Positions 2,179 through 55,920 of a DNA stretch of 55,920 nucleotides are shown one piece after another. Positions within the stretch are counted from its first letter, which is position 1; each line of letters opens with the position of its first letter. The DNA lies in the IMG/VR virus record IMGVR_UViG_3300006143_000014, positions 1 to 55,920 of that record. The stretch is one strand, 5' to 3'. The notes below the pieces were generated by a model. That model had not been told where the DNA came from, searched no databases, and saw only the letters and a list, made by a program, of their open reading frames with translations. Origin of the DNA: a virus. The position numbers and the translations under genes are program-made.

Positions 2179-2820
2179 TTATCCTCCGCCATCCCTGGGC
2201 TTCCAGTAGCCTGACATGAGGTTCTTTGGCTTTTCGCTTGCTGTCACAACCGCATCAAATTCCCAGTACGACGTGCGAATGCGCAACCCGGCAAATACAC
2301 AGAAATCCTCGCCAGCCTCGATGCCACCGCCAGCCTTGATGCCCTCGCCAGCCTCGATGCCCTCGCCAGCCTCGATGCCACCGCCAGCCTCGATGCCCCA
2401 GCCAGCCTCGATGCCACCGCCAGCCTTGATGCCATAGCCAGCTTTGATGCCCTCGCCAGCCTTGATGCCCTCGCCAGCCTTGATGCCCTCGCCAGCCTCG
2501 ATGCCACAGCCAGCCTCGATGCCACGGCCAGAAATCAGTGTTTTGATTTTTACGCCAAGTCTGACCTCTACTCGGCCAGCAAAAATAATGTTTTCATCCG
2601 GGGTGTCAACCGCATCCTCATAAGCACGGACATCATCCGTAGCGCCGATGTGGTCAAGCAGCCACTGGCCAAAGCCCAAACGGCCCTCTTTGGCACAGCG
2701 GTCAAGCACTTCCTGGTACTCGCCACCGTCCGGGAACGCTTTCTGAAACTCCCTCTGCCCATCACGGCAGGCCCCCAACTCCTTCAAATACGCCAGGGTA
2801 ATCTTAAATGTACCTTTCAT
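2179..2820 (-). CDS. Hexapeptide-repeat (predicted beta-helix) protein, 213 aa
   Basis: ATG at 2820 lies behind AAAGGAGGAG. It has a globular N-terminal domain followed by about 12 repeats of G-I-(E/K)-A-G-x. Confidence 0.7.
   Translation of the reverse strand: MKGTFKITLAYLKELGACRDGQREFQKAFPDGGEYQEVLDRCAKEGRLGFGQWLLDHIGATDDVRAYEDAVDTPDENIIFAGRVEVRLGVKIKTLISGRGIEAGCGIEAGEGIKAGEGIKAGEGIKAGYGIKAGGGIEAGWGIEAGGGIEAGEGIEAGEGIKAGGGIEAGEDFCVFAGLRIRTSYWEFDAVVTASEKPKNLMSGYWKPRDGGG
2311..2530. repeat. 18-bp tandem repeat (gccagcctcgatgccacc-like units)
   Basis: Read directly. It encodes the GIEAGx/GIKAGx hexapeptides of 2179..2820. Confidence 0.9.
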
Positions 2821-2848
2821 GGCTCCTCCTTTGTTTAATGCAAGCCCT

Positions 2849-2998
2849 TCACGCCCAAGCCATCGCGCACAGGGCCGACAACTCCGCCAGCTCAACGCCC
2901 GTCAGCTTGCCGCTCTTGTCCGCGTCTTGCAGCAGCCGTTCCCGCGCCATCTCGCCGGGCGTGCACAGCAGCCGCTCCTTGATTCCCTCGAATGTCAT
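2849..2998 (-). CDS. Small hypothetical protein, 49 aa
   Basis: ATG at 2998 lies behind GAAGGAGGGA. MTFEGIKERLLCTPGEMARERLLQDADKSGKLTG.... It is below the ORF-track cutoff. Confidence 0.4.
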   Translation of the reverse strand: MTFEGIKERLLCTPGEMARERLLQDADKSGKLTGVELAELSALCAMAWA

Positions 2999-5033: not shown

Positions 5034-5074
5034 CCCCTTTCAGGAAAAATTTTTGAAAATTCGTAAATTAATTC

Positions 5075-5103
5075 TTGACAACAATTAAACTCTAACGTAC
5101 AAT
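5075..5103 (+). promoter_or_regulatory. Rightward repressor promoter TTGACA-17-TACAAT
   Basis: Consensus hexamers lie 26 nt upstream of the CI-like start. Confidence 0.65.
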
Positions 5104-5128
5104 TGAATTAAAGCTAGGAGGTGGGTGT

Positions 5129-5795: not shown

Positions 5796-6188
5796 ATGTA
5801 TTGCAGAAACTGCGGCCAGCCGCTCAACCCGCGGGCGGATTATTGCGTTAAGTGCGGCGTGGGCGTGGGGAAGGGGGCAAGCTTTTGCCCAAATTGTGGT
5901 TTCCAGGTTTCTGAAATTGCCGACGTCTGTGTCCGCTGCGGAACGTCTCTTGCAAGAATAGCTCCAAAGTCCAAGGTTTTGGCCGGCCTTTTAGGTATCA
6001 TTTTCGGGTGCTTTGGGGTACATAATTTCTATCTCAACTATGTGGGGAAAGCTGTTGCGCAGCTGCTCATCACGCTTTTGAGTTTTGGGCTTTTGGCGTG
6101 GGTCTCCGCCTTATGGGGGCTCATTGAAGGAATACTTATCCTGACAGGTTCCATCAACAGGTCGAAAAAAGGAGTTCCAATTGAGTAA
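5796..6188 (+). CDS. Double zinc-ribbon plus TM2-domain membrane protein
   Basis: CRNCG..CVKCG..CPNCG..CVRCG followed by the TM2 motif GLLGIIFGCFGVHNFYLNYVGKA. Confidence 0.85.
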   Translation: MYCRNCGQPLNPRADYCVKCGVGVGKGASFCPNCGFQVSEIADVCVRCGTSLARIAPKSKVLAGLLGIIFGCFGVHNFYLNYVGKAVAQLLITLLSFGLLAWVSALWGLIEGILILTGSINRSKKGVPIE

Positions 6189-7533
6189 TGATATGAAGCG
6201 GGTATTTCTTTACGTGCGCGTCAGCACCGAAGAACAGGCTGTCCATGGGCTGTCCATCGAGGCGCAGACCGCCGCCCTGGAAGACTGGGCAAAGGCAAAT
6301 GGGCACAAGGTCGTGGGCCTCTATGTAGACGCTGGAATTTCTGCCCGGAAGCCATCCACGAAACGGCCTGCGCTCCAACGCTTACTTGATGACGTAAGGG
6401 CAGGCAAGGGCAACATGGTTGTATTTACCAAGCTGGACAGGTGGTTTCGGTCGGTGAGCCAATACTACCAGGTGCAGGACGTGTTAGAGGCGCACAATGT
6501 ATCGTGGCGGGCAATCCATGAGGACTACGAGACCGCCACCGCATCCGGGCGCTTAAAGGTCAATATCATGCTCAGCGTGGCCCAGGATGAGGCGGATCGA
6601 ACATCGGAGAGGATCAAGGCAATCAACGAAATGAAGCGTCAGAAGCTGGAGCCGCTTACCGGGCAAATGCCATATGGATATATACTTGAGGGCAAAAAAA
6701 TTGTCAAGGACCCAAAAACGCAAAAGGCCGTAGAGATATTTTTCAAAACGCTGCTTGAAACCGGGTCGGTTTCCGGGTCGCAGCAGGAAGTTTTTGAGCA
6801 GTGCGGGATTGTCCTTAACTATGAGCGGGTGTACCGAATGATGAAAAGCACCGCCTATTATGGGCGGTACTTTAACGCAGATGGTATGGTTCCCCCATAT
6901 GTGACAAAACAGGATTATGATAAGATACAGGAAGCGAGGCGGAAACTTGTAAGAAAATCTCCAAAAAACCATATTTTCCTCTTTTCTGGGCTTATGGTAT
7001 GCGCAGAATGCGGTCGCAGAATGGGCACACGGCGGGCCACGCACTCGAATTACCAATATTATGCTTGCCCGTCTTCATACCGAAAGACGGCGGATTGCAA
7101 TAATAGGGTTTGCATAAACGAAAAGAACATAGAGCAATACATCCTCGATACGCTGGATGAAAAAATAAGGCAAAAAAAAATTGAGTACGAAAAAGAAGCC
7201 GCACAGCGGAAAGAAAAAAATTACAAAGCGGAGATATCTGCTGTGCGCGGAAAGCTAAAGCGGCTCAAAAGCCTTTATATTGAGGACATAATCTCAATAG
7301 AAGATTACAGGGAAGATTATGCTAAGCTGACCGAAAAATTGGAGGAGCTGTCTAAACTGGATAAACCCGAGCCGCAACCTAATTTTGGGACCCTGGATAC
7401 GTTCGTACAGTCCGGATGGAAAGAGGCATACTTTGCCCTTGAAAAAGAGCGCAAAAAGAAAGTTTGGCGTTCTGTTATAAGGGAGATACGGGTCTACCCG
7501 GACCGGCATATTGAGTTTGATTTGGACGTTTAA
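6181..7533 (+). CDS. int: Large serine recombinase (phage integrase)
   Basis: YVRVSTEEQ catalytic-Ser motif, recombinase domain, CAECGRRMG...YYACP zinc ribbon and a C-terminal coiled coil. Confidence 0.95.
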   Translation: MSNDMKRVFLYVRVSTEEQAVHGLSIEAQTAALEDWAKANGHKVVGLYVDAGISARKPSTKRPALQRLLDDVRAGKGNMVVFTKLDRWFRSVSQYYQVQDVLEAHNVSWRAIHEDYETATASGRLKVNIMLSVAQDEADRTSERIKAINEMKRQKLEPLTGQMPYGYILEGKKIVKDPKTQKAVEIFFKTLLETGSVSGSQQEVFEQCGIVLNYERVYRMMKSTAYYGRYFNADGMVPPYVTKQDYDKIQEARRKLVRKSPKNHIFLFSGLMVCAECGRRMGTRRATHSNYQYYACPSSYRKTADCNNRVCINEKNIEQYILDTLDEKIRQKKIEYEKEAAQRKEKNYKAEISAVRGKLKRLKSLYIEDIISIEDYREDYAKLTEKLEELSKLDKPEPQPNFGTLDTFVQSGWKEAYFALEKERKKKVWRSVIREIRVYPDRHIEFDLDV

Positions 7534-7546
7534 TTTTTGCCCAAGG

Positions 7547-7594
7547 TATTACATAGTTTTTCGACATCTACGCAAGATATAAAACTATGTAATA
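7547..7594. other. Candidate attP core (14-bp perfect inverted repeat around a 20-bp centre)
   Basis: TATTACATAGTTTT-N20-AAAACTATGTAATA lies directly 3' of the serine integrase gene. Confidence 0.4.
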
Positions 7595-7599
7595 TAAAA

Positions 7600-7629
7600 G
7601 GGAGTGGCAGATACCACTCCCTTTTATTT
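7600..7629. terminator. Bidirectional rho-independent terminator
   Basis: GGGAGTGG-cagata-CCACTCCC, flanked by AAAA and TTTTATTT, between convergent genes. Confidence 0.8.
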
Positions 7630-8486
7630 CAGTGCTTAGTAACGTAGGTAAAGTATGCCGCAAGTTTGTCAGCCACAGCGTCTTTATCATCCAGCCAAAA
7701 AGCCTTTGCGAAGTCCACATAGGCGTCAACAGTGTTAATGCCGTATTTCTTGAACATTTTGCAAAGGTCGCTGTATGTTGCGTTCAGCGCCGCCCAAAAC
7801 TCCCAAGGCGACCCATCAATCTCTTTCTGCGCCATCACCTGTTTGGCCTGGTCCATGGTCCAGTGGGGGCCGCGGGTGCCATCCTCGTTCTTTAGGCTGC
7901 CCATCCACTCCTCGGCCATCTCCCGGTCGAAGCGGGGCATCCGTTCACTGGCAGCGTAGCCCTGCATAGGCCGCTGGCCCTGCATCCGCTCCATCTCGTC
8001 ATAGCGGGGCATGGTCGCGTCTGAGCCGTTCATGCTGGGCGCGAAGCCAATTGGGTTCATCCTGCGTTCTCTCCTTTCCTCCTCATAGATGGGATAGGTG
8101 GGGTAATACCTGCTGTCCATCTCCGGGTTATCGTAGCCGCCGCGAGAGTCGGGATAGCGCGGGTAGTTTCCGCCCATCATGGACATAGGCGCGAAGCGCC
8201 CGTTGTCATAGTGCTCCCGGCCACGGCGGTCACGGAAGCGGCTGTCCGGGCCGTAGCCCTCGCCGTCATACTCGGCGCGGCCATAGTTCATTCCGCCCTC
8301 GTATTCGCTGCGGCCATATTCGCTTCTGCCGCCGGAACCGCCGTACTCGCCCCGCCCATAGCCGGATCCCCGGCCACGCGAGCTGCCGCCGCCGGCCTCG
8401 GCTCGCGCGCCCCAATCCTCATACTCCACGTTGACGCGCCGGCCTTTGTCACGGTTTGCCATCATCATAAGCGCTTTTTTGTTCAC
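7629..8486 (-). CDS. Arg/Gly/Tyr/Glu-rich low-complexity protein with globular C-terminal domain, 285 aa
   Basis: SRGRGSGYGRGEYGGSGGRSEYGRSEYEGG..., then ...GPHWTMDQAKQVMAQKEIDGSPWEFWAALN.... It is the last gene of the post-lysis operon. Confidence 0.65.
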   Translation of the reverse strand: MNKKALMMMANRDKGRRVNVEYEDWGARAEAGGGSSRGRGSGYGRGEYGGSGGRSEYGRSEYEGGMNYGRAEYDGEGYGPDSRFRDRRGREHYDNGRFAPMSMMGGNYPRYPDSRGGYDNPEMDSRYYPTYPIYEEERRERRMNPIGFAPSMNGSDATMPRYDEMERMQGQRPMQGYAASERMPRFDREMAEEWMGSLKNEDGTRGPHWTMDQAKQVMAQKEIDGSPWEFWAALNATYSDLCKMFKKYGINTVDAYVDFAKAFWLDDKDAVADKLAAYFTYVTKH

Positions 8487-8498
8487 GTTCAGCCCTCC

Positions 8499-8903
8499 TT
8501 ATGCACCGGGCGGCGCGGGCGCGGCGGGAGCCGTCCCGTCAATGCTGGGCAGATTATTGGTCGGGCAGGGGCAGGCGTTGCCCAGCAGCTTGAAGGTGCC
8601 GCCGGTTTCGCTGGTGGAGACCACAGTGGAATACCGGGTCCGCGTGCGGATCGCGCAGGCGGTGAGCTGGGCGCAGCACTTGTTGGTCAGCGGGTAAAGC
8701 TCCGTGCCGTCGCCAATCGTCACGACCACTGGGGCGTTGATGGTAGTTGCGGCGGGAATGGCCTGGGCAACCACGATGCAGTATTTGCACCCATCGCCGT
8801 AGGCCCCGGCGGGAAGGTTGATGACCAGGTTTCCGCCGGTAAAGGTCACCGCCGCCGAAATGACCAAATGGTCGCACAGGCGGCACACAGGTTTACAGGA
8901 CAT
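8499..8903 (-). CDS. Cys-rich hypothetical protein, 134 aa
   Basis: ATG at 8903 lies 7 nt after AAGGAGGA. MSCKPVCRLCDHLV...GCKYC...KCCAQLTAC...CPCP. Confidence 0.6.
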   Translation of the reverse strand: MSCKPVCRLCDHLVISAAVTFTGGNLVINLPAGAYGDGCKYCIVVAQAIPAATTINAPVVVTIGDGTELYPLTNKCCAQLTACAIRTRTRYSTVVSTSETGGTFKLLGNACPCPTNNLPSIDGTAPAAPAPPGA

Positions 8904-8999
8904 AAACATTCCTCCTTGAAAGTCAGGGGCGGCGAGAACCACCGCCGCCCCGAAGTCGTCACCCGTCATTCGGGGAAATTTAACTTGCCGGTAACTTGC

Positions 9000-9821
9000 T
9001 CAGCAGCAGGAACCGCAGCCCTGGTTGCAGCCGCAGCCGTTGGCGAGAACCTGCGGAGCCCAGTTGCCCAGGCCGCAGGGAGACGCGGCGGGGTAAGCGG
9101 GCACGGGGCGCGGGTTGATTACGCCGGTGAGCTGGTTGATGATGTAGTTGGCGGTGGACTGATCGCCGCACTGGGCCAGCTGAGTGCGCAGGTTGGCAAT
9201 CGTCTCGTCCTTGCGGGCCATCTCCATCGCGTCCAGCTTGGCCAGCACACGGTCGGTGTCGTTGTGGGCGTTTTGGATGATGGCGGTGGTGTTGGCCTGG
9301 TCGTTGTAGCTGGTCTGGCAGAAGCCGCGCTCCACCTGGTTGCCAAGCTGCATGAGGTTGGTCTGCGTCTTGCAGCAGCAGTCCGCGGCCTGGGCCTGAG
9401 CGGCGTTGAAGCCCTGCATCATGGCAACCTGCGTGGCATTGAACCCGCCCTGCATGGCGTTGCCCAGGGTGCACACAGCGTTGTCAACCCCGTGGAAGCC
9501 CTGCATCATGTTCATGCCCAGGTTGCTCAGGGCATTGCTCTGCGCGTAGAAGCCGTCACAGATACCGGCGTTGATGCCGTCCAGCTTGCCGATGATGCTC
9601 TGGGTGTCCAGGCTGCGCTGAAGGATCGCCTCAGTGGGGTAAGCGCCGCCGCCACCGCCGCCGCCAAAGCCGCCGAAGCCGTTGCCGCCCCACAGACAGG
9701 CCAGCAGGATAATGGCCCACAGCCACTCGCCGCCGAAGCCGTTGCCCCAGCCGTTGTTGCCGCCGCCGTTGTTGTCCTGGCCCAAAGCGTAGCCAAGAGA
9801 GAAATCGTTTCCATCAGCCAT
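9000..9821 (-). CDS. Gly/Asn/Phe-rich, Met/Gln-repeat protein with one TM and a Cys-rich C-terminus, 273 aa
   Basis: GGGNNGWGNGFGGEWLWAIILLACLWGGNGFGGFGGGGGGG, repeated MQGF-type motifs, and an ending of GCGCNQGCGSCC. Confidence 0.65.
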   Translation of the reverse strand: MADGNDFSLGYALGQDNNGGGNNGWGNGFGGEWLWAIILLACLWGGNGFGGFGGGGGGGAYPTEAILQRSLDTQSIIGKLDGINAGICDGFYAQSNALSNLGMNMMQGFHGVDNAVCTLGNAMQGGFNATQVAMMQGFNAAQAQAADCCCKTQTNLMQLGNQVERGFCQTSYNDQANTTAIIQNAHNDTDRVLAKLDAMEMARKDETIANLRTQLAQCGDQSTANYIINQLTGVINPRPVPAYPAASPCGLGNWAPQVLANGCGCNQGCGSCC

Positions 9822-10038
9822 AATAAAATCTCCTTTTCAAATATTTGCAAGCCGGGGCCGTACGCTCCCCAGCGTTTGCACGTTGGAAAGCGGTTTTGGT
9901 CAAGACCCGCAAAACTGAAAAAGAGTTGCAATTACTTTTGATATGTGGTATCATGACAGTGGAACACATCATCTGCCACGACTGTGTTTTTCCGTGCCTA
10001 CCCCTGTCAGCGTTGCCGCGCTGCCGGGGGTTTTCTTT

Positions 10039-10275
10039 TTATTTTGGAACCTGAATACCAAGCTGCTGAGCGATCTGCTCCACGCTTGTCCCCCGCTCCT
10101 TCGCCATGTTCTCTGCCATCTGCCGAAGCTGCTGTGGGTTTTTCCCGTTCATCATCTGCATGACCTGGGCGATTTGAGGATTGGACCGCGACATCTGCTG
10201 CATCACTGCCATAGGGTTTCCGCCGTTTCTGGCCGTGTTCATAAGCATAAAGATCGGGTTATTCATCGGCATCAT
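10039..10275 (-). CDS. Met/Gln/Asn-rich small protein, 78 aa
   Basis: MMPMNNPIFMLMNTARNGGNPMAVMQQMSRSNPQIAQVMQMMNGKNPQQ.... It overlaps the upstream stop. Confidence 0.55.
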   Translation of the reverse strand: MMPMNNPIFMLMNTARNGGNPMAVMQQMSRSNPQIAQVMQMMNGKNPQQLRQMAENMAKERGTSVEQIAQQLGIQVPK

Positions 10276-10729
10276 TTTTTCTGCCTCCCTTTCCGCCCGA
10301 AGCGGGTTTTTTTAGCTGCTCCAAGTCCTTTTTGATTTCGCCGAGTAAGCCTTTCAGTTCGTCTACCTGGGCAGTCGTGGCAAAGGCGGTGGCGGTTTGC
10401 TCCTGTATGGCTTCCGGCACAGCGGGAGTAAACTCGGCGAATTCAGCGGCCCCCGTCGCCATGTTCCACCGCTTCAGATAAATTCTGTTGTGCGTCACGT
10501 CAGGGAACAGCATCATGGCTCCGCTAAAATCGGCCTGAACCGCGTTTGCCTCGTCTTTGTTGGACACGGGGCGGCTGGCAGGTGAAATCCCCTGGCCCAT
10601 CTGTTGGGCTGTCTGAAAGGCCTGTACGGGCATTTGCTGGGGCGTCTGCATCATCATTTGATTTTGGTACGGCTGGGCCATGCCGTACCCGGAGCCATAG
10701 GCCGGGTAATTCCCATAATTAAATGCCAT
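10259..10729 (-). CDS. Protein with Tyr/Gly/Gln/Met-rich N-terminus, central domain and C-terminal coiled coil, 156 aa
   Basis: MAFNYGNYPAYGSGYGMAQPYQNQMMMQTPQQMPVQAFQ.... GAGGAGG RBS. Confidence 0.6.
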   Translation of the reverse strand: MAFNYGNYPAYGSGYGMAQPYQNQMMMQTPQQMPVQAFQTAQQMGQGISPASRPVSNKDEANAVQADFSGAMMLFPDVTHNRIYLKRWNMATGAAEFAEFTPAVPEAIQEQTATAFATTAQVDELKGLLGEIKKDLEQLKKPASGGKGGRKNDADE

Positions 10730-10748
10730 CGCTTAAACCTCCTCAGTG

Positions 10749-10901
10749 TCAATCGTTGGGCCTCTGCCTTTGTCCGCGCTCAAACTCGCAGATGTAGCGT
10801 TCCAGTCCGGCGTCGTTGCCCTGCTGGAAAAACCAAAACGCGGTGTCAAAAGCGGTTTCTGCGTCCATGCCTACGGCCACCAGCCGGTCTACGGCTTGCA
10901 T
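10749..10901 (-). CDS. Small hypothetical protein, 50 aa
   Basis: ATG at 10901 lies behind GGAGGGGA. MQAVDRLVAVGMDAETAFDTAFWFFQQGNDAGLERYI.... Confidence 0.4.
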   Translation of the reverse strand: MQAVDRLVAVGMDAETAFDTAFWFFQQGNDAGLERYICEFERGQRQRPND

Positions 10902-10921
10902 AATATCCCCTCCAAGAAAGA

Positions 10922-10986
10922 ATAGGAGGGCGCAGAAATGCCGTTTGGCATGGCGGCTTTGCCGCCTTATCTCCGCGTCCTCCTAT
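10922..10986 (-). other. GC-rich structured element: closing stem plus two internal hairpins
   Basis: ATAGGAGGgCGC pairs with GCGtCCTCCTAT. The stem encloses ATGCC-gttt-GGCAT and GGCGGC-ttt-GCCGCC. It lies between a terminator and the first cargo ORF. Confidence 0.35.
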
Positions 10987-10999
10987 GAATTTATGATAA

Positions 11000-11040
11000 C
11001 AAAAAAACAGGCGGGCGCTCTATCAGCTTCCCGCCTGTTT
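11000..11040 (-). terminator. Rho-independent terminator after the sigma-like gene
   Basis: ACAGGCGGG-14 nt-CCCGCCTGT, flanked by A7 and T5, so it could act in both directions. Confidence 0.75.
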
Positions 11041-11055
11041 TTCATCAAAAAACTA

Positions 11056-11259
11056 TCACAGAACCTTGAATATCTTCCTTTTTATGGACTTAATGCGCCT
11101 ATCCACCGTTGCAACCGACATATTGAGCGCCATGGCGATTGCAACGCGGCTGTTGTCCTTCACGCGCAGGTTGAATACCTTCAGTTCCTCCCCGGTAAAG
11201 TTGCATTGACGCCGAAAGTATTCGCATTCCGGCTCTGTAAACTCAGTCTTGAGGTTCAA
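11056..11259 (-). CDS. Sigma-70 region-4-like HTH regulator, 67 aa
   Basis: ...FTGEELKVFNLRVKDNSRVAIAMALNMSVATVDRRIKSIKRKI resembles small sigma-like or LuxR-type HTH proteins of phages and Tn916-type elements. Confidence 0.65.
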   Translation of the reverse strand: MNLKTEFTEPECEYFRRQCNFTGEELKVFNLRVKDNSRVAIAMALNMSVATVDRRIKSIKRKIFKVL

Positions 11260-11643: not shown

Positions 11644-12363
11644 TTAATCCAACTTTCCCAACCGGTCCAGCACGGTCATGGTCCGGCAGAAGTCCTCGGA
11701 CACGTTCAGCGCCCCGTCCCCGGTGCCCTTGAGCGCACCCTTCTTCACAAGCTTGTCCACCGTGGGCCGGTAGTGGCTGGGCACATCCTCCAGCTTCTCG
11801 TAAATAACAACCATCTCGTCGTCCTCCTTTTTGTCGTCGGGCACAAGGGACCAGTCCGGCCGCCCATAGCCCTTGATTTTTGCGTACCGCAGGGAGTATT
11901 TACACGAGCGCACCGCGCTGGGGCTGCCCGCGTTGCCCTCAATGGTGTGCACGTACCCGTCCTTCACCGCCGCCACCAGCCCCGTATGGCTGGTCACCGT
12001 GGCCGTGCCGAAAAAGATTTGGTCCCCCGGTTGGGGCGTCTGGAAAAACTGCTTCCTTGCCTTGTAGTAGTCCATGGAGTACTTCGTGCCCGCGCCCAGG
12101 GATTTGTTGGGCTGGCACAGCAGCTTTTGGCCCAGCTCCCGCCCAAAGGTGCGCACGAAGCACCAGTCCACGAACACGTCGCACCAGTCGTAGCCGTTTT
12201 TCCGTCCATTGTAGAAGTCCCCCAGGGCGTCCAGATCACGGGCGAACCTGTTCCACAGCCCGCCAGCGTTGGCCCCTGGGTCGTCCAGGGCGGCGTTGGT
12301 CTTCTTGCCCAAGTAGCCCACCTGATCCTCCGCAGTGGCGATGACCCGTTCCGGAGCCGTCAT
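11644..12363 (-). CDS. CHAP-domain endolysin, 239 aa
   Basis: NGYDWCDVFVDWC...SHTGLV shows the Cys/His CHAP signature. An ATGA overlap joins it to the holin stop. Confidence 0.85.
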   Translation of the reverse strand: MTAPERVIATAEDQVGYLGKKTNAALDDPGANAGGLWNRFARDLDALGDFYNGRKNGYDWCDVFVDWCFVRTFGRELGQKLLCQPNKSLGAGTKYSMDYYKARKQFFQTPQPGDQIFFGTATVTSHTGLVAAVKDGYVHTIEGNAGSPSAVRSCKYSLRYAKIKGYGRPDWSLVPDDKKEDDEMVVIYEKLEDVPSHYRPTVDKLVKKGALKGTGDGALNVSEDFCRTMTVLDRLGKLD

Positions 12364-12560
12364 AGGCTCAGCTCCATAGCGTCCTGCACCTTCTGGCTCT
12401 GGGTGCCGAAGTAGAACGCGATCACCACGGCGTACACCGTCATGAAGTCCTGGCTGATGGCCTGACGCACCGTCATCACGGCGAACACCACCGTGAGTGC
12501 CAGGGTGACCAGGGACTTCACGCTGAGCAGGTTGCCCAAGCGCTTGTAAATAGTTTCCAT
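12360..12560 (-). CDS. Holin, 66 aa
   Basis: Two TM segments, small size, and a position immediately upstream of the endolysin. Confidence 0.75.
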   Translation of the reverse strand: METIYKRLGNLLSVKSLVTLALTVVFAVMTVRQAISQDFMTVYAVVIAFYFGTQSQKVQDAMELSL

Positions 12561-12805
12561 TATGTACCCTCGCTTTCCTTTGTGTGTCCGAATAGGACAC
12601 CGTCGTTGTGCTCAAAAACGTTCTCCACCACCTTCAGGACGTTCACGCCCAGGATGGTGGTAATGGCCTGCTGGCTCAGTTCCACCACAGGAAAGGGCTG
12701 TCCAAGCTTTACCGTAGCGTACATGGCGATAAGATAGGACGTGCTCACCCACACCAAGGCGGCCAGCTGCGTGGTGACGAACAGCCACCGGGTGACGCGC
12801 TTCAC
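12560..12805 (-). CDS. Second holin-like membrane protein, 81 aa
   Basis: GTG at 12805 forms a GTGA overlap with the XhlA-like stop. Two hydrophobic segments. Confidence 0.55.
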   Translation of the reverse strand: MKRVTRWLFVTTQLAALVWVSTSYLIAMYATVKLGQPFPVVELSQQAITTILGVNVLKVVENVFEHNDGVLFGHTKESEGT

Positions 12806-13128
12806 TTGCCCACCCCCGGCATCCCCGCCGCCAGCCACACCAGGAACGCGCCCACCAGGGCGCTCAGGGCATACCCAACCAGGCTTTCCCATCGCTTGGC
12901 AGGCTTTTCGGCCAATTCTTTGGCTGTGGCGTTCAGCTCGTCCAGCTTCTCATCGATGCTGTCCAGCTTCGTGTTGACGGAAGCCCCATTTTGCTCCAGC
13001 GCTCCAATACGCTCAAACATCTGCCGGTGGGTGTCGGACGAATTTTCCCGGTAGCGGTTGAACTCCTTTTCCAAGGCGTCCACCCTCGTGGACACCGGGC
13101 AGTCTTTGGGGTTGCAGTTTTCAGGCAT
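12802..13128 (-). CDS. xhlA: XhlA-like protein (coiled coil plus C-terminal TM)
   Basis: VDALEKEFNRYRE...LDSIDEKLDELN, then TM LVGYALSALVGAFLVWLAAG. Synteny resembles PBSX xhlA-xhlB-xlyA. Confidence 0.7.
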   Translation of the reverse strand: MPENCNPKDCPVSTRVDALEKEFNRYRENSSDTHRQMFERIGALEQNGASVNTKLDSIDEKLDELNATAKELAEKPAKRWESLVGYALSALVGAFLVWLAAGMPGVGK

Positions 13129-22055: not shown

Positions 22056-22145
22056 GGTGATTTTATAAAATAATTTGGTGACTAAAGGCTCTCGTGTGTG
22101 GACAATCTGCGCTCATTGTGGTATTCTTCCTTTGGGGTGAGGAAT

Positions 22146-22457
22146 ATGGCAAACTATACAACCAGCACAAGCGACAAATCTAAGGATGAGGCGCTCAAGC
22201 GGTGGAAGTTAGGAGCTTTAGGGCTCTTTGGTTTGGAGTACTTTTATGTTGGAAGGGTAAAGGCAGGAATCGTCCGGGTTTTGATTGGAGTTTTTCTGAT
22301 ATTAGGTATTTTTAGCGGACTTATTGGAGGCAGCATTGACTTTCTGAGCGCAATAATTGGGTTACCGATTTTGTGGGCAATTATTGCCACACCAAATTTT
22401 TACAGACTAAAAATGGGGACATTTCGTGATAACGTTGGGAACCCATTAAGAGAATAA
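22146..22457 (+). CDS. TM2-like membrane protein, 103 aa
   Basis: ATG at 22146 lies behind GGGGTGAGGA. LGLFGLEYFYVGRVKAGIVRVLIGVF. Confidence 0.65.
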   Translation: MANYTTSTSDKSKDEALKRWKLGALGLFGLEYFYVGRVKAGIVRVLIGVFLILGIFSGLIGGSIDFLSAIIGLPILWAIIATPNFYRLKMGTFRDNVGNPLRE

Positions 22458-22498
22458 AGCAACAAGCCCTCTGCTGATTTTTAAAAGATGGTGATGAT

Positions 22499-23086
22499 AT
22501 GGGAATATTTTTTGCTTTCTTTGAGCTTTTTAATGCCATGTTTGCCGCATTTAAAATCTTTTTGCTTTTAATACCAGTCTTAATTATTATAATTGTTTTA
22601 ATTTTAGTTCAGGGGAAGAAAAACAGGGACAAGGCAAAAGAGATTCAAGCGCAACAGAAATCTTACAGATATTGTCGCAACTGCGGGCAAACACTGAGCG
22701 CGAATTCAACTATATGCGCCAGTTGTGGTGCACGGGCTGGAACCGGGAAAAGATATTGCCCTCGGTGTGGGAACAAGACAGATGAGCTTGCTGTGATTTG
22801 CGTGAATTGTGGGATTCCTCTTGAAAAGACATCTTTGCGTGATGTTTCTCCTAAGTCGAAAGTCGCAGCAGGATTGTTTGGGATTTTGTTTGGAAGTTTA
22901 GGAGTACATAATTTTTACCTTGGATATACACTTAAAGCAGTTTCACAAGTTATAATTACTGTATTTTGCTTTATATTCGGCCTGTTTTTCGGAAATTTCA
23001 TTGTGGCTATATGGGGATTGATTGAAGGAATCATGATACTGGCTGGTGGGATTTCAAAAGATGCAAACGGAAGGGTGCTATCCTAA
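22499..23086 (+). CDS. Zinc-ribbon plus TM2-domain membrane protein
   Basis: CRNCG..CASCG..CPRCG..CVNCG, then GLFGILFGSLGVHNFYLGY. Paralog of 5796..6188. Confidence 0.8.
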   Translation: MGIFFAFFELFNAMFAAFKIFLLLIPVLIIIIVLILVQGKKNRDKAKEIQAQQKSYRYCRNCGQTLSANSTICASCGARAGTGKRYCPRCGNKTDELAVICVNCGIPLEKTSLRDVSPKSKVAAGLFGILFGSLGVHNFYLGYTLKAVSQVIITVFCFIFGLFFGNFIVAIWGLIEGIMILAGGISKDANGRVLS

Positions 23087-23097
23087 AATTAGATACG

Positions 23098-23550
23098 ATG
23101 AAGGGAGCGATTTCTGTGTTCTGCCAAAAGTGCGGTACAAGCATTCCAGATAACAGCGAAAAGTGCCCCAATTGCGGTGCTCTGCGCGATGGGCTGAAAT
23201 ATTGCAAATATTGTGGAAAAATTATTGATAAAGAATGTGTTGTCTGCCCGAAATGCGGAAAGCAGGTAGAAGAAATAAGGGGCGGACAACCAAATATCGT
23301 CATCAACAATTCAAATAGCAACCAAAACGTCAATCAAAACGCGATGATTGCTGGCGGTCGTCTCAGAAACAAGTGGGTTGCGCTTATCTTGTGTATCTTG
23401 CTGGGAGTCTTTGGGGCACACAAATTCTATGAGGGAAAGATCGGAATGGGGATATTGTATTTGTTCACCTTTGGCCTATTGGGCATTGGGTGGCTTGTTG
23501 ATATTTTTGTCCTTGCTTTTAAGCCAAATCCCTATATCGTATACGCCTAA
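23098..23550 (+). CDS. Zinc-ribbon plus TM2-domain membrane protein
   Basis: CQKCG..CPNCG..CKYCG..CPKCG, then ILLGVFGAHKFYEGKIGMGILYL. Confidence 0.8.
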   Translation: MKGAISVFCQKCGTSIPDNSEKCPNCGALRDGLKYCKYCGKIIDKECVVCPKCGKQVEEIRGGQPNIVINNSNSNQNVNQNAMIAGGRLRNKWVALILCILLGVFGAHKFYEGKIGMGILYLFTFGLLGIGWLVDIFVLAFKPNPYIVYA

Positions 23551-46290: not shown

Positions 46291-46479
46291 ATGAAAACGC
46301 CCGACGAAATGTACGACGCCGCTTTTCTTTCGTCTGTAAATCGCTTGAAATCTGCCACAGCCGGATTAGATTTGACACCCGGCGAGCAAAGAACTTTTAA
46401 ATGGCTGACCGACCTGGAAATCTCCACTATAAACAACATCGCCAGTATTATCGAGAAAGCAAAGGAGGCCGCACAATGA
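46291..46479 (+). CDS. Hypothetical protein, 62 aa
   Basis: AAAGGAGG RBS. An ATGA overlap joins it to the FtsK-like gene. Confidence 0.55.
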   Translation: MKTPDEMYDAAFLSSVNRLKSATAGLDLTPGEQRTFKWLTDLEISTINNIASIIEKAKEAAQ

Positions 46480-47240
46480 ACCGTACATGGACAACGCCCG
46501 CAGGGCATCGTTACGCCCTTTACCGCTCACTTTTGGAGCAGCCGCACGTTATGGTTGCCGGCGCCACCGGCAGCGGTAAGAGCGTCGTTATCAACGCCCT
46601 GATATACACCGCCCTGTTCTGCGCCCCTACCGACGGCCCCAACGGGGCGCAGTTTGTCCTTATCGACCCGAAAAGGGTCGAGATGGTGGATTACAAAGGC
46701 CTCCCGCACACGCTCAGATACGCCTCAGAGCCCGCCGAGATGGTTCAGGCTATCCAGTACGCCATGGACCTTACAGAGGCCAGATACCGCACCATGCAGC
46801 GCCAGAGGGTCAAGAAATGGGACGGCGGGCAGGTTTATGTTGTCATCGACGAGTTCGCAGATCTGATGACCACCAACCGAAAGCAGGTCCAGCCCCTGAT
46901 CCAGCGTCTTGCCCAGGTAGGCCGCGCCGCTGGGGTGCATATCATCCTTGCCACTCAGTGCCCATTGGCGAAGGTCATCCCCACGGAAATCAAGGTCAAC
47001 TTTGACGCCCGCATAGCTCTCCGCACCCGTTCCGCCCAGGACAGCCGGAACATTTTGGGCGTTACCGGCTGTGAGCTTCTGCCCCGCTATGGTCGGGGCT
47101 ACTACATGACGCCGGAGGGGACCACGCTCTATAACATCCCCATGATAGAGCAGGAGGAGCTTGACGCCCGGGTAAAGTGGTGGATGGACCAGGCGCGGCC
47201 CAAAGGATTCTTTTCCGGCCTGTTCAGGCGTTCTGCTTAA
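46476..47240 (+). CDS. FtsK/SpoIIIE-family ATPase (DNA translocase-like), 254 aa
   Basis: Walker A VAGATGSGKS, Walker B VYVVIDEFADL, and ILATQ. Confidence 0.85.
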   Translation: MNRTWTTPAGHRYALYRSLLEQPHVMVAGATGSGKSVVINALIYTALFCAPTDGPNGAQFVLIDPKRVEMVDYKGLPHTLRYASEPAEMVQAIQYAMDLTEARYRTMQRQRVKKWDGGQVYVVIDEFADLMTTNRKQVQPLIQRLAQVGRAAGVHIILATQCPLAKVIPTEIKVNFDARIALRTRSAQDSRNILGVTGCELLPRYGRGYYMTPEGTTLYNIPMIEQEELDARVKWWMDQARPKGFFSGLFRRSA

Positions 47241-49020: not shown

Positions 49021-49094
49021 TGGTGGCCCATCCGGGAATCGAACCTGGTCCAGCTGGTTATGAGTCAGCCGCTCGACCTTCGAGCTAATGGGCC
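49021..49094 (-). tRNA. tRNA-Met (anticodon CAT), CCA encoded
   Basis: Manual cloverleaf: acceptor GGCCCAT/ATGGGCC, D arm GCTC/GAGC, loop CTCATAA, and T loop TTCGATT. There is one A-C mismatch in each of the anticodon and T stems. Confidence 0.7.
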
Positions 49095-49693: not shown

Positions 49694-49760
49694 AGCCGCC
49701 GACTTGGAATCGAACCAAGTGCATGGCAATGGCCTTGCTCTCCCTCTGAGCTACAGCGGC
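49694..49760 (-). ncRNA. tRNA-like element, 67 nt, with a truncated anticodon region
   Basis: Acceptor GCCGCTG/CGGCGGC, perfect D arm GCTC-AGAGGGA-GAGC, and T arm CTTGG-TTCGATT-CCAAG. Only about 16 nt lie between the D and T arms. Confidence 0.4.
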
Positions 49761-50254
49761 ATATATGCCATTGAACTACTCGACGCTTAGGCGCACATTC
49801 TACCCAGAAACGGCGTATCAAATTTCGTTTCCTTCTTTGTGTTGGCCTACGTCGCCACGCCATTCATCCCGCCTCGTTCTCTGGCAAATATCCAGCGTTC
49901 CTGTTGATTTATCATGGGCCGGAACGCCAGAAATCAGCCCACCCGTCCCCGCTACAACAATACGCCTGTTTTTTACGGGTCGTACCTGCAATCGACACTA
50001 ACGGCAATCACAATTAGCGGGGCGTTTATTCACAGCTGGCAGCGGTGAATTTTTCCTGAAACGCCCAAAGGGTTTCCGGTTTCGCCCTCAGTGCGGGCTA
50101 TCCCGGCATATATCCCACATCCGGGGCGGCGGTAACGGCCCGCCGCCCCTTCCGTTGATGCGTGTGGGAGGAGGCGGTGGAGGGAGGGGTCCTCCACGCT
50201 TCTATGATAGCATATACAACGGCTGATATAAACCCCCGCAATCTTCGAAATTGT

Positions 50255-55564: not shown

Positions 55565-55920
55565 CGCAATCCCACCTTTCCGCCGCCGCCAAAACGGCCT
55601 GGGCATACGCCCGGCTTCCGGCGTCCCATCCCGCGTTGTACGCCGTCAGGGCCGCCGCCGTGTCGCCGTGCCGCTCCAGCAGTTCGCCCAAGAACCGCAT
55701 CCCGTGCCGGACGTTGTCCGCCGGGGACAGCCCCTCCGGGAAGTACCTCGGGTTGAGCTGGCACAGCCCATAGCAGCCCTCCGCGCTCACCGCATCCGCC
55801 TGAAAGCCGCTCTCCACCTCAATCACGCCCAGCGCCAGGCTCAGCGGCACGCCGTACTCCTCGCAGCTTTCCGCCAGCGCCTCGACCACGGGCTTGTCCA
55901 GCGGGACATCCGGCCCCGGC
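55557..55920 (-). CDS. Lytic transglycosylase (SLT domain), C-terminal catalytic part
   Basis: VIEVESGF, GLCQL and AYNAG motifs. It is continuous with 1..277 across the circular junction. Confidence 0.85.
   Translation of the reverse strand, partial: PGPDVPLDKPVVEALAESCEEYGVPLSLALGVIEVESGFQADAVSAEGCYGLCQLNPRYFPEGLSPADNVRHGMRFLGELLERHGDTAAALTAYNAGWDAGSRAYAQAVLAAAERWDCDD
55844..55920. repeat. Terminal overlap, identical to 1-77
   Basis: Direct comparison. Confidence 0.9.

Follow-up and report, generated by a model that had tools for sequence, protein, structure and literature searches.

A five-gene cassette conserved across unrelated phages possibly encodes a membrane-anchored complex that works with lysis

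The T holin of phage T4 combines a short N-terminal tail, one transmembrane (TM) segment and a large, Cys-containing C-terminal domain, and its partners RI and RIII tune it. In phage lambda, Rz and Rz1 pair an N-terminally anchored coiled-coil protein that has a conserved Cys with a small, Pro-rich, Cys-bearing partner encoded beside the lysis genes. Here, we describe a set of genes that recalls both systems: a five-gene cassette, A-B-C-D-E, in the virus record IMGVR_UViG_3300006143_000014, analysed over a window of 55,920 nucleotides (nt) that spans positions 1 to 55,920 of that record. Our tentative reading is that this region holds a single copy of a phage accessory cassette that is conserved, moves horizontally and is unrelated to spores; its products would form a membrane-anchored complex working with lysis.

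The central protein, C, has the same gross layout as T and is often encoded beside lysis genes. It differs from T in having no sequence or profile similarity to holins or antiholins, in appearing to face the cytoplasm and in belonging to a set of five components; moreover, canonical holin candidates co-exist with the cassette in the genomes that carry it. The likeness to spanins includes the position of the cassette after a LysB/FtsL-like gene in crAss-like genomes. However, D, the candidate small partner, has neither a signal peptide nor a lipobox and no family match; the hosts of this lineage are monoderm Clostridia, which lack an outer membrane (related loci come from Oscillospiraceae); and C also occurs in archaeal viruses. 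The Gly/Tyr/Cys-rich composition of the set resembles that of BclA, ExsY/CotY and CotG-type proteins, and D is weakly like the knobs of collagen-like fibres, but no coat or exosporium protein was matched by sequence, profile or structure, and the carriers include phages of non-sporulating hosts. Lastly, C has a Gly/Phe/Trp-rich hydrophobic segment followed by long amphipathic helices, as do influenza HA2 and apolipophorin III, but the scores are not significant and are compositional.

Single members of the cassette had been catalogued before, since E, C and A are members, by sequence, of DUF7841, PHROG 16490 and PHROG 21718, respectively. These catalogues list the proteins singly and without function, and they describe neither the five-gene cassette, nor its spread across phyla, nor the D family. 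We found no paper on DUF7841, phrog_16490 or the other cassette genes, and the literature on phage C3_41T2LP, crAss labels, lysis in Crassvirales and Methanomassiliicoccales viruses held nothing on these genes. Taken as a system, the cassette has no match among known ones.

A co-inherited gene set and its components

A preliminary description of the window, made from its sequence without database searches, had recognised six tightly packed open reading frames (ORFs) downstream of a small regulator and had proposed that their synteny be surveyed in other prophages. We compared the region with 113 loci from other genomes, including 23 loci in GTDB genomes, found with phmmer, and 80 IMG/VR loci. 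The gene order recurs in most of the 113 loci, and recurrence of the set is far above chance. The 23 GTDB loci, mostly from Oscillospiraceae, have the order TM103-HTH-A-B-C-D-E or long parts of it, where TM103 is a small membrane protein and HTH a helix-turn-helix protein (Table 1); carriers include Flintibacter muris, Oscillibacter, Colidextribacter and Pseudoflavonifractor. A lies upstream of C in 79 of the 80 IMG/VR loci, and in most of the genome loci. We conclude that A-B-C-D-E is co-inherited in a fixed order. Five of the six ORFs make up this conserved cassette, whereas the sixth, of 50 amino acids (aa), was found elsewhere only in L102 and in L005, a near-identical contig, has no family match in Pfam, PHROGs or NCBIfam, and is probably lineage-specific and outside the conserved core.

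Carriers are predicted podo-, sipho- and myo-type phages alike. The circular, 58-kilobase (kb) genome of bajarodcaudo virus 5 has the same order, positioned after the holin and lysin genes and before a reverse-strand replication block, and A-B-C-D2, in which D2 is an alternative to D, is found in a 139.6-kb contig that has its own DNA polymerase III alpha subunit, NrdD and dUTPase. A is present in six isolated Clostridium perfringens phages, and A-B-C-D was confirmed in XP41-N3. DUF7841 matches many crAss-like genomes, where the DUF7841 gene adjoins a C homologue. The order in cr125_1 is holin, LysB/FtsL-like gene, DUF7841 gene, full-length C homologue and small beta protein; the neighbour of the C homologue scores 147 bits against DUF7841, and the C homologue itself keeps the hydrophobic segment, the CCC motif and the PxPAY...Cys tail of its family. 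The same set stands between a 'pholin' and a 'transpeptidase catalytic domain' gene in cr10_1 and cr1_1. A plaque-isolated phage of Bacteroides uniformis, C3_41T2LP, encodes a C homologue followed by D-like, beta-plus-coiled-coil and R/D/Y/E-rich proteins and a possible DUF7841 relative; hhalign comparison of its 133-aa and 180-aa proteins with DUF7841 and D gave P values of about 0.02 each, which is suggestive only. C alone was found in viruses assigned to Methanomassiliicoccales. The C/D/E core spans different host phyla and phage lifestyles. As a separate observation, each cassette or lysis gene of cr125_1 (L029, 3277-6549) has one to five in-frame TAG codons and all of them end in TAA, which fits TAG reassignment in late genes.

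This distribution bears on the explanation offered in the preliminary description, namely that the region is lysogenic-conversion cargo that builds or modifies a spore coat, an exosporium or a cell-surface matrix, with a sigma-like gene that interferes with sporulation. The Gly/Tyr-rich and Cys-rich compositions that inspired it are genuine: the 78-aa protein is M/Q/N-rich, the 273-aa protein is G/N-rich with one TM segment, the 134-aa protein has ten Cys, and the 285-aa protein is rich in R/G/Y/E. A cargo slot next to an integrase, a regulator whose top Pfam match is LuxR/GerE and the weak likeness of the D fold to the knobs of collagen-like fibre proteins also fit this idea. However, at E<=1 neither Pfam nor NCBIfam gave a coat or exosporium family for any of the six proteins, D and D2 had no PDB match by sequence or profile, the partners of C lack an export signal, and the GerE score is below threshold, GerE being in any case a generic HTH family. 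In addition, the C/D/E core is found in crAss-like and B. uniformis phages, and C in Methanomassiliicoccales viruses. Neither Bacteroides nor methanogens form spores, and crAss-like phages do not count as classical temperate phages. Since these carriers have non-sporulating hosts, a spore coat or exosporium cannot be the general role of the cassette. The preliminary description had listed a non-sporulating host with no lysogen expression as evidence against its own proposal; the host half of this is found for the cassette as a whole but not for the window phage. The genomic position had also been called the classic slot for lysogenic-conversion genes. Temperate relatives do often carry the cassette at a lysis/integrase boundary (an integrase lies <=5 kb downstream in 30 of 80 evaluable loci), but the term is too narrow because the C/D/E core occurs in crAss-like and Bacteroides phages; in crAss-like genomes the cassette lies inside the late block. 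We regard a role in a spore or surface matrix as highly improbable, and as the least likely of the explanations considered here.

All proteins were searched against Pfam, PHROGs, NCBIfam and PADLOC 2.0. The outcome was DUF7841 and two PHROGs, none with an assigned function. A to E had no significant match to a virion structural family, searches of the PDB by sequence or profile with C, D, E, B and D2 gave nothing or noise, and a cluster look-up returned no names for the window proteins. The preliminary description had seen no resemblance to a known virion, lysis or replication family, and none was matched in our searches; the profile and structure searches that it had recommended also led to no characterised family. 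The cassette is a co-inherited, non-enzymatic set of one membrane anchor (C), one highly constrained beta domain (D) and disordered, motif-bearing partners.

Residues 17-271 of C align to positions 20-281 of the 286 positions of phrog_16490, and the homologue in vir335 bears the same PHROG label. C starts with an acidic, G/N-rich N-tail of ~32 residues, followed at residues 33-45 by a hydrophobic segment, WLWAIILLACLWG, that is flanked by GFGG and poly-Gly. Beyond this segment are QGF-type amphipathic repeats, a CCC motif (residues 148-150) that is invariant in family alignments, a highly conserved coiled coil (residues ~180-235), a PxPAY motif and a Cys-rich C-tail (GCGCNQGCGSCC); the protein has 14 Cys. 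C matches >6,000 clusters at 90% identity, among 8,000 scored candidates, and none of these >6,000 clusters bears a name or a Pfam domain; a scan of IMG/VR found at least 464 relatives. Among 87 family members the N-tail has K+R of 0.7 versus D+E of 3.1, and the 40 residues past the hydrophobic segment have K+R of 1.6; an N-out, C-in topology is weakly suggested. When a profile of C was compared with the PDB, the matches were the fusion peptide and helix of influenza HA2 (E=0.14) and apolipophorin III, at E=0.06-0.5 overall; we discarded these as sub-threshold and compositional, although the HA2-like score is probably the source of the label 'spike protein/glycoprotein' in crAss records. Separately, the central segment of C (alignment columns ~250-310, residues ~150-205) exists in two sharply different versions, one with ...TGQMQIGNQIERGFC...IIQNAHNDTDRV... 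and the other with ...AALADLKYDMATSDCSIKTL...DLINNKFC..., which are shuffled among otherwise similar C proteins, indicating recombination between alleles.

Of the five components, D is the most conserved. It matches 5,795 unnamed clusters, the top 120 of which are 79-100% identical (119 of them 79-89%) and almost all 134 aa long. The protein starts with MSCKPVC, and its ten Cys include an N-terminal cluster of C3, C7 and C10; C7, C10 and C42 are invariant, and C3 is nearly so. D has no Pfam family and no confident PHROG. An AlphaFold2 model (predicted local distance difference test (pLDDT) 67, predicted template modelling score (pTM) 0.64) is an eight-stranded beta domain. Foldseek found nothing in the PDB for this model at E<=0.001, the best match being a phage baseplate/tail-fibre chain (E=0.16). 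In BFVD it matched uncharacterised phage proteins, down to E=3e-13, and, more weakly, C-terminal domains of fibre or collagen-repeat proteins (E=1e-3 to 2e-2, template modelling score over the query (TMq) 0.42-0.50). A D-like fold also lies within a 294-aa crAss-like DUF7841 protein (Foldseek E=0.013, TMq 0.51), and the model hints that this may be a D-E fusion, and hence a physical link between the two. In the loci examined that have no detected D, an alternative family of ~140-aa, Cys-containing proteins, D2, is encoded past C; D2 occurs in 85 loci in all. D2 has no match in Pfam, NCBIfam or the PDB, and hhalign of D against D2 (E=0.15) leaves homology unproven. A suspected likeness of the D2 C-terminus to the C-terminal domain of BclA found no support in phmmer or profile searches of the PDB and was dropped.

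The models and profiles of C and D bear on another explanation, that the products are virion-associated parts of a fibre, decoration or penetration device, with C as a coiled-coil stalk carrying a fusion-peptide-like segment, D as a distal knob and B as a chaperone. The matches of the D model to C-terminal domains of tail-fibre and collagen-repeat phage proteins, its best PDB match and the HA2 score of C all point in this direction, as do the tail genes that neighbour the cassette in Suoliviridae and the fact that Cys-rich proteins are typical of extracellular structures. Yet every such similarity is below significance, and the cassette is shared by podo-, sipho- and myo-type phages. It lies behind the lysis genes and a terminator in the window and among early or recombination genes elsewhere. 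A receptor-binding knob would be expected to vary, yet D is the most conserved member. We found no proteome of a carrier phage, and the titles and abstracts of papers on the C. perfringens carriers, a genome announcement among them, mention no virion proteome. We consider a virion role distinctly unlikely.

Residues 179-279 of E match DUF7841 (PF25223) with 105.9 bits (E=1.9e-30), far above the gathering threshold of 25.2 bits, so E is a member of the family. The preceding disordered region (residues 31-175) is 19% G, 15% R, 11% Y and 10% E, and has short motifs conserved within the lineage of the window: SRFRDRRGREHYDNGR, PYVPPVY and MNKIGF. The DUF7841 of E matches 1,239 clusters at 50% identity. 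All of the top 150 representatives have a disordered region followed by a C-terminal DUF7841, and none has another Pfam domain or a domain fusion. The partner domain does vary in E: where DUF7841 is absent or uncertain, as in C3_41T2LP (77 aa) and L037 (133 aa), a disordered stretch rich in R/G/Y or R/D/Y/E is still present. A has a Q/M/G/Y/P-rich disordered N-terminus, a central domain of ~50 aa with the conserved motif RPVxxxxEA...F.G...D...IY.K, a coiled coil and a K/G-rich tail; its residues 2-150 align to positions 6-158 of the 159 of phrog_21718, nearly the full length. The start of B overlaps the end of A by 17 nt in the window, and by 4-17 nt in 57 of 58 loci, indicating translational coupling of the two genes. 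B has only a sub-threshold Pfam match, to an XPC-binding/STI1-like family (E=0.004). Its PDB match to 7bqq, 'Gogy' (E=0.0027), which we take to be a designed helical protein, tells only that B is helical. The C homologues of a Bacteroides phage (L030, 4725-5642), a crAss-like phage (L029, 4601-5500) and a Methanomassiliicoccales virus (L031, 4650-5573) have an extra Met-rich N-terminal stretch, e.g. GMMAMLAPLLQQKGIDPNLLVAMNGKN, that resembles B and may represent a B-C fusion; hhalign of B against the N-terminus of the C3_41T2LP C homologue gave P of about 0.02, again only suggestive.

The preliminary description had named a condensate as one option. The disordered regions of A and E could indeed mean that the cassette encodes a membrane-tethered organiser or condensate for phage nucleic acid, replication or assembly, built on R/G/Y-rich and Q/P/Y-rich sequence; phi29 p16.7 and p1 would be analogues. 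Both proteins hold long disordered regions with conserved short motifs, the R/G/Y-rich part of E and the K/G-rich tail of A look fit to bind nucleic acid, and the retention of the R/D/Y/E-rich partner in C3_41T2LP and L037, together with the replication or recombination genes that abut the cassette in several phages, is consistent with such a role. However, we detected no DNA- or RNA-binding domain, composition alone is weak evidence, and a site beside replication genes is also a module boundary. We judge this explanation very unlikely.

In our preferred reading, in which the set forms a membrane-anchored complex working with lysis, C would hold a multiprotein assembly to the cytoplasmic membrane of the host. 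The large domain of C, which bears Cys, helices and the coiled coil, would most likely face the cytoplasm, because A, B, D and E lack export signals and C has a short, acidic N-tail. The N-terminal Cys cluster of D would let it dock on the Cys-rich end of C, by a common metal site or by disulfides; E and A would contribute multivalent disordered arms; and the Met-rich B may shield the hydrophobic, Gly-rich segment of C.

Genomic context and possible roles

The C proteins of the 113 loci fall into 21 groups at 60% identity, and context differs from group to group. In one group, a peptidase gene of CHAP or C39 type lies on the same strand, at most 4 kb upstream, in all 29 evaluable loci, and 16 of 17 have a tyrosine integrase downstream; in L037, 4 nt separate the end of the peptidase gene from A. 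Of the loci in the group to which the window belongs, 4 of 9 have a lysin gene upstream and 8 of 14 have an integrase downstream. This group-by-group picture indicates that the cassette is a mobile unit that lands at module boundaries, often, but not always, beside lysis genes. At least four unrelated lineages, crAss-like phages among them, have the cassette adjoining lysis genes or inserted between them, and for that reason we place its function on the lysis side: the products may form a late-infection device on the cytoplasmic membrane that acts with holin and endolysin to control or complete lysis and egress. We put this forward as possible rather than probable.

Several observations weigh against this assignment. 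No component matches a holin, antiholin, spanin or other lysis family in Pfam, PHROGs or NCBIfam, and canonical holin-like and endolysin genes are already present in the genome. The topology argument for C is weak because both flanks of its hydrophobic segment are net acidic, and the AlphaFold2 model of C is unusable (pLDDT 44.8), so that no fold search was made on it. In a group of 38 loci the cassette comes directly after DNA methylase genes, a Tn916-type xis and a tyrosine integrase gene, and no lysin of the CHAP or C39 type lies within 4 kb. The cassette has recombination genes as neighbours in C3_41T2LP and early-type genes in XP41-N3, where it lies 3.3 kb beyond the holin gene. Within the window, a terminator separates it from the late operon, and it has its own regulator; such insulation would suit a moron whose expression does not depend on lysis. 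Proximity to lysis genes may reflect no more than insertions that accumulate at module boundaries.

Some of the same features could be expected of a membrane complex for superinfection exclusion or another form of host protection. Such a complex would be made by the prophage or, in virulent phages, early in infection, and would change the membrane to block incoming phage DNA or other threats. The cassette occupies a boundary or moron site next to integrases in the 30 loci mentioned above and directly follows xis-int in the 38-locus group, it has an HTH regulator of its own and is flanked by terminators, C is a membrane protein, and the mosaic central segments of C are what diversifying pressure would give. 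Exclusion proteins that are known tend to act singly, to evolve fast and to be host- or phage-specific. In this case, by contrast, five genes are conserved across phyla, and D retains its high identity across the 119 non-identical top clusters. PADLOC 2.0 returned no defence-system model for the cassette, only noise (E>=0.005) to HTH and E. In Suoliviridae, moreover, the genes lie inside the late lysis and tail block. We think an exclusion role unlikely.

Flanking elements and the rest of the genome

The final 77 nt of the window (55844-55920) are identical to its initial 77 nt (1-77), indicating that it is a circularly assembled phage genome of ~55.84 kb and not an integrated prophage; it is probably a full genome. 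The preliminary description had placed the region at the prophage end next to attP; it does lie beside a serine integrase gene, but in a circular genome. The genome is of the siphovirus type. Upstream of the cassette it encodes a terminase, a portal, a major head protein, a tape measure of 1,468 aa and tail fibres. The cassette is outside the structural operon, in which the terminase, portal, capsid and tape-measure genes occupy 16-41 kb, ahead of the lysis genes.

Every gene of the cassette region is on the minus strand, where the order, 5' to 3', is CHAP endolysin, TM103, HTH, terminator, a Y-shaped RNA element, ORFs of 50, 156, 78, 273, 134 and 285 aa, and a bidirectional terminator, with the integrase gene convergent (Table 1). 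The HTH gene with its terminator, the structured hairpin, the six ORFs and the bidirectional terminator were thus all found where the preliminary description had put them. The ORFs are not uniformly packed, the successive gaps from the HTH gene to E being 154, 19, -17, 217, 96 and 12 nt, and the structured element covers 59 nt instead of 65.

Table 1. Positions of the cassette genes, neighbouring genes and predicted nucleic acid elements in the window; the two D2 examples are in other loci.
Feature	Position	Strand	Properties
Component E, 285 aa	7629..8486	-	R/G/Y/E-rich disordered region, then DUF7841 (residues 179-279)
Component D, 134 aa	8499..8903	-	N-terminal Cys cluster, eight-stranded all-beta domain, Pro/Ala-rich tail
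Component C, 273 aa	9000..9821	-	Single-pass membrane protein; phrog_16490, E=1.9e-19
B-C spacer, 217 nt	9822..10038	-	Structured; hairpin directly past the B stop codon; fold -74.7 kcal/mol, z=-4.35
Component B, 78 aa	10039..10275	-	Small, helical; M 17%, Q 15%, N 12%
Component A, 156 aa	10259..10729	-	phrog_21718, E=1.1e-11
50-aa ORF	10749..10901	-	Good ribosome-binding site
Y-shaped two-hairpin element, 59 nt	10925..10983	-	Outer stem GGAGG/CCUCC around two hairpins; just 5' of the ribosome-binding site of the 50-aa ORF
Intrinsic terminator after HTH gene	11001..11042	-	13-bp G+C-rich stem, then T7
HTH67, 67 aa	11056..11259	-	HTH of LuxR/GerE or sigma-region-4 type, by Pfam, PHROG and NCBIfam scores
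TM103, 103 aa	11286..11597	-	Single-pass membrane protein; between CHAP endolysin and HTH genes
CHAP endolysin	12615..11644	-	Pfam CHAP, E=2e-9
Holin candidates, 66-aa and 110-aa ORFs	12360-12892		Separate from C
Bidirectional intrinsic terminator	7594-7627	both	Perfect 14-nt arms, 6-nt loop, A-run on one side, T-run on the other
Second perfect inverted repeat	7547-7594		14-nt arms, 20-nt spacer; directly past the integrase stop codon
Large serine recombinase (integrase)	6181..7533	+	Resolvase, E=2e-33; Zn_ribbon_recom, E=1e-13; phrog_95 integrase, E=1e-101; context, outside the cassette
D2 example, L003	10891-11319		Motifs HREGSG, QCRARF, PRGCC, ending NLIVERVA
D2 example, L037	8912-9355		Motifs as for L003

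The preliminary description had called the small regulator sigma-like. HTH67 scores 19.6 bits against Pfam GerE (E=7e-4; cut-off 23.5), so that formal membership is not reached, 14.3 bits against Sigma70_r4_2 (E=0.03; cut-off 25.7) and 15.2 bits against TIGR02937 (cut-off 42.9), and its matches to PHROG sigma-factor and regulator families have E=2e-3 to 2e-2. Because it has only 67 aa, it cannot hold sigma region 2; it is not demonstrably a sigma factor, and nothing ties it to sporulation. These scores suggest that HTH67 is likely an HTH of the general LuxR/GerE or sigma-region-4 type. It probably regulates the cassette, and about 12 genome loci have a homologue of it upstream of A. TM103, which has a peak 19-residue hydropathy of 2.67 at residues 30-48 and no Pfam or PHROG assignment, has a homologue adjoining an HTH homologue in L008, L013, L016, L017, L022 and L024. 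As a holin candidate separate from C, L005 has a weak match to Phage_holin_6_1.

The terminator after the HTH gene has counterparts in L017, L008, L024 and L016, with other stem sequences, compensating changes and a TGATAG-like loop. Together with the Y element it forms a 159-nt stretch that folds at -73 kcal/mol (z=-7.4 versus shuffles). A like Y architecture of different sequence precedes the first cassette gene in L017 (~5040-5110), L021 (~2290-2350) and L008 (~580-640); the elements of L017 and L021 have a common CCCGG-ACACGYCGCC-GGG hairpin. No Rfam family matched any sequence overlapping 10925-11042, and the best Rfam score in the region was 27 bits, against a threshold of 51, for the terminator/attP stretch versus Termite-leu. 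The Y element could be an undescribed cis-regulatory RNA, and the B-C spacer may hold a putative internal terminator and promoter. The region of the 3' terminator folds with z=-7.5, and this terminator is predicted to serve both the cassette and the convergent integrase gene. The second inverted repeat is a plausible candidate for the attP core of the serine integrase. TGATAG motifs also occur at 11019-11058, both where the HTH gene ends and within its terminator loop, and as direct repeats with 11-nt spacing just upstream of A in L020 (5035-5084) and L023 (4786-4813). Such repeats could be a candidate operator for the HTH protein. We rejected TGATAG as a genome-wide operator, since it is not enriched in the window (29 sites versus ~18 expected on both strands, two of them near the HTH gene).

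Elsewhere in the window, a low-GC island (about 40-46% GC) on the plus strand, between the tail-fibre and tape-measure genes (22098-23550), encodes three membrane proteins, two of which have zinc-ribbon motifs. They resemble a zinc-ribbon/TM2-domain protein encoded just upstream of the integrase gene (5796-6188, plus strand), and the two sites look like a separate paralogous moron set. There are two tandem repeats, one of 33 copies of the 6-nt unit AGCCGT (298-496), in which a 48-nt period is also visible, and one of 12 copies of an 18-nt unit (2310-2531) that gives GIEAG/GIKAG repeats in a 238-aa minus-strand ORF (2179..2895). An FtsK/SpoIIIE-like ATPase gene (46401-47240) is on the plus strand of an otherwise minus-strand genome, and tRNA genes for Met-CAT and Ala-AGC lie at 49021-49094 and 49695-49786 on the minus strand.

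Implications

Most genes of gut phages have no known function. Here, a whole five-gene set, and not a single orphan, is conserved in thousands of phage genomes across host phylum, morphology and lifestyle. Our findings also correct misleading labels attached to these proteins, namely 'spike protein/glycoprotein', 'outer capsid protein/viral fiber' and 'RNA polymerase sigma factor/ubiquitin-like protein'; those in crAss records stem from sub-threshold coiled-coil and fusion-peptide-like similarity. Culturable carriers exist among C. perfringens phages such as CPQ4 and XP41-N3, as the B. uniformis phage and as a prophage of Flintibacter muris DSM 110149 at locus L019, so that the role of the cassette is directly testable by deletion. 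Should the cassette instead encode an exclusion system or a virion appendage, it would bear on competition among gut phages or on their persistence. If the role in lysis is true, the cassette would bring a new component to a process regarded as well mapped. A bolder proposal, which we hold to be doubtful, is that the products constitute a previously unrecognised membrane-acting phage machine for lysis, egress or remodelling, made of a Gly-zipper and coiled-coil anchor, a Cys-clustered beta knob and disordered scaffolds, in phages of Bacillota and Bacteroidota and possibly in viruses of archaea. On that proposal, these genes would rank with the most abundant gene sets in gut viromes that are still uncharacterised.

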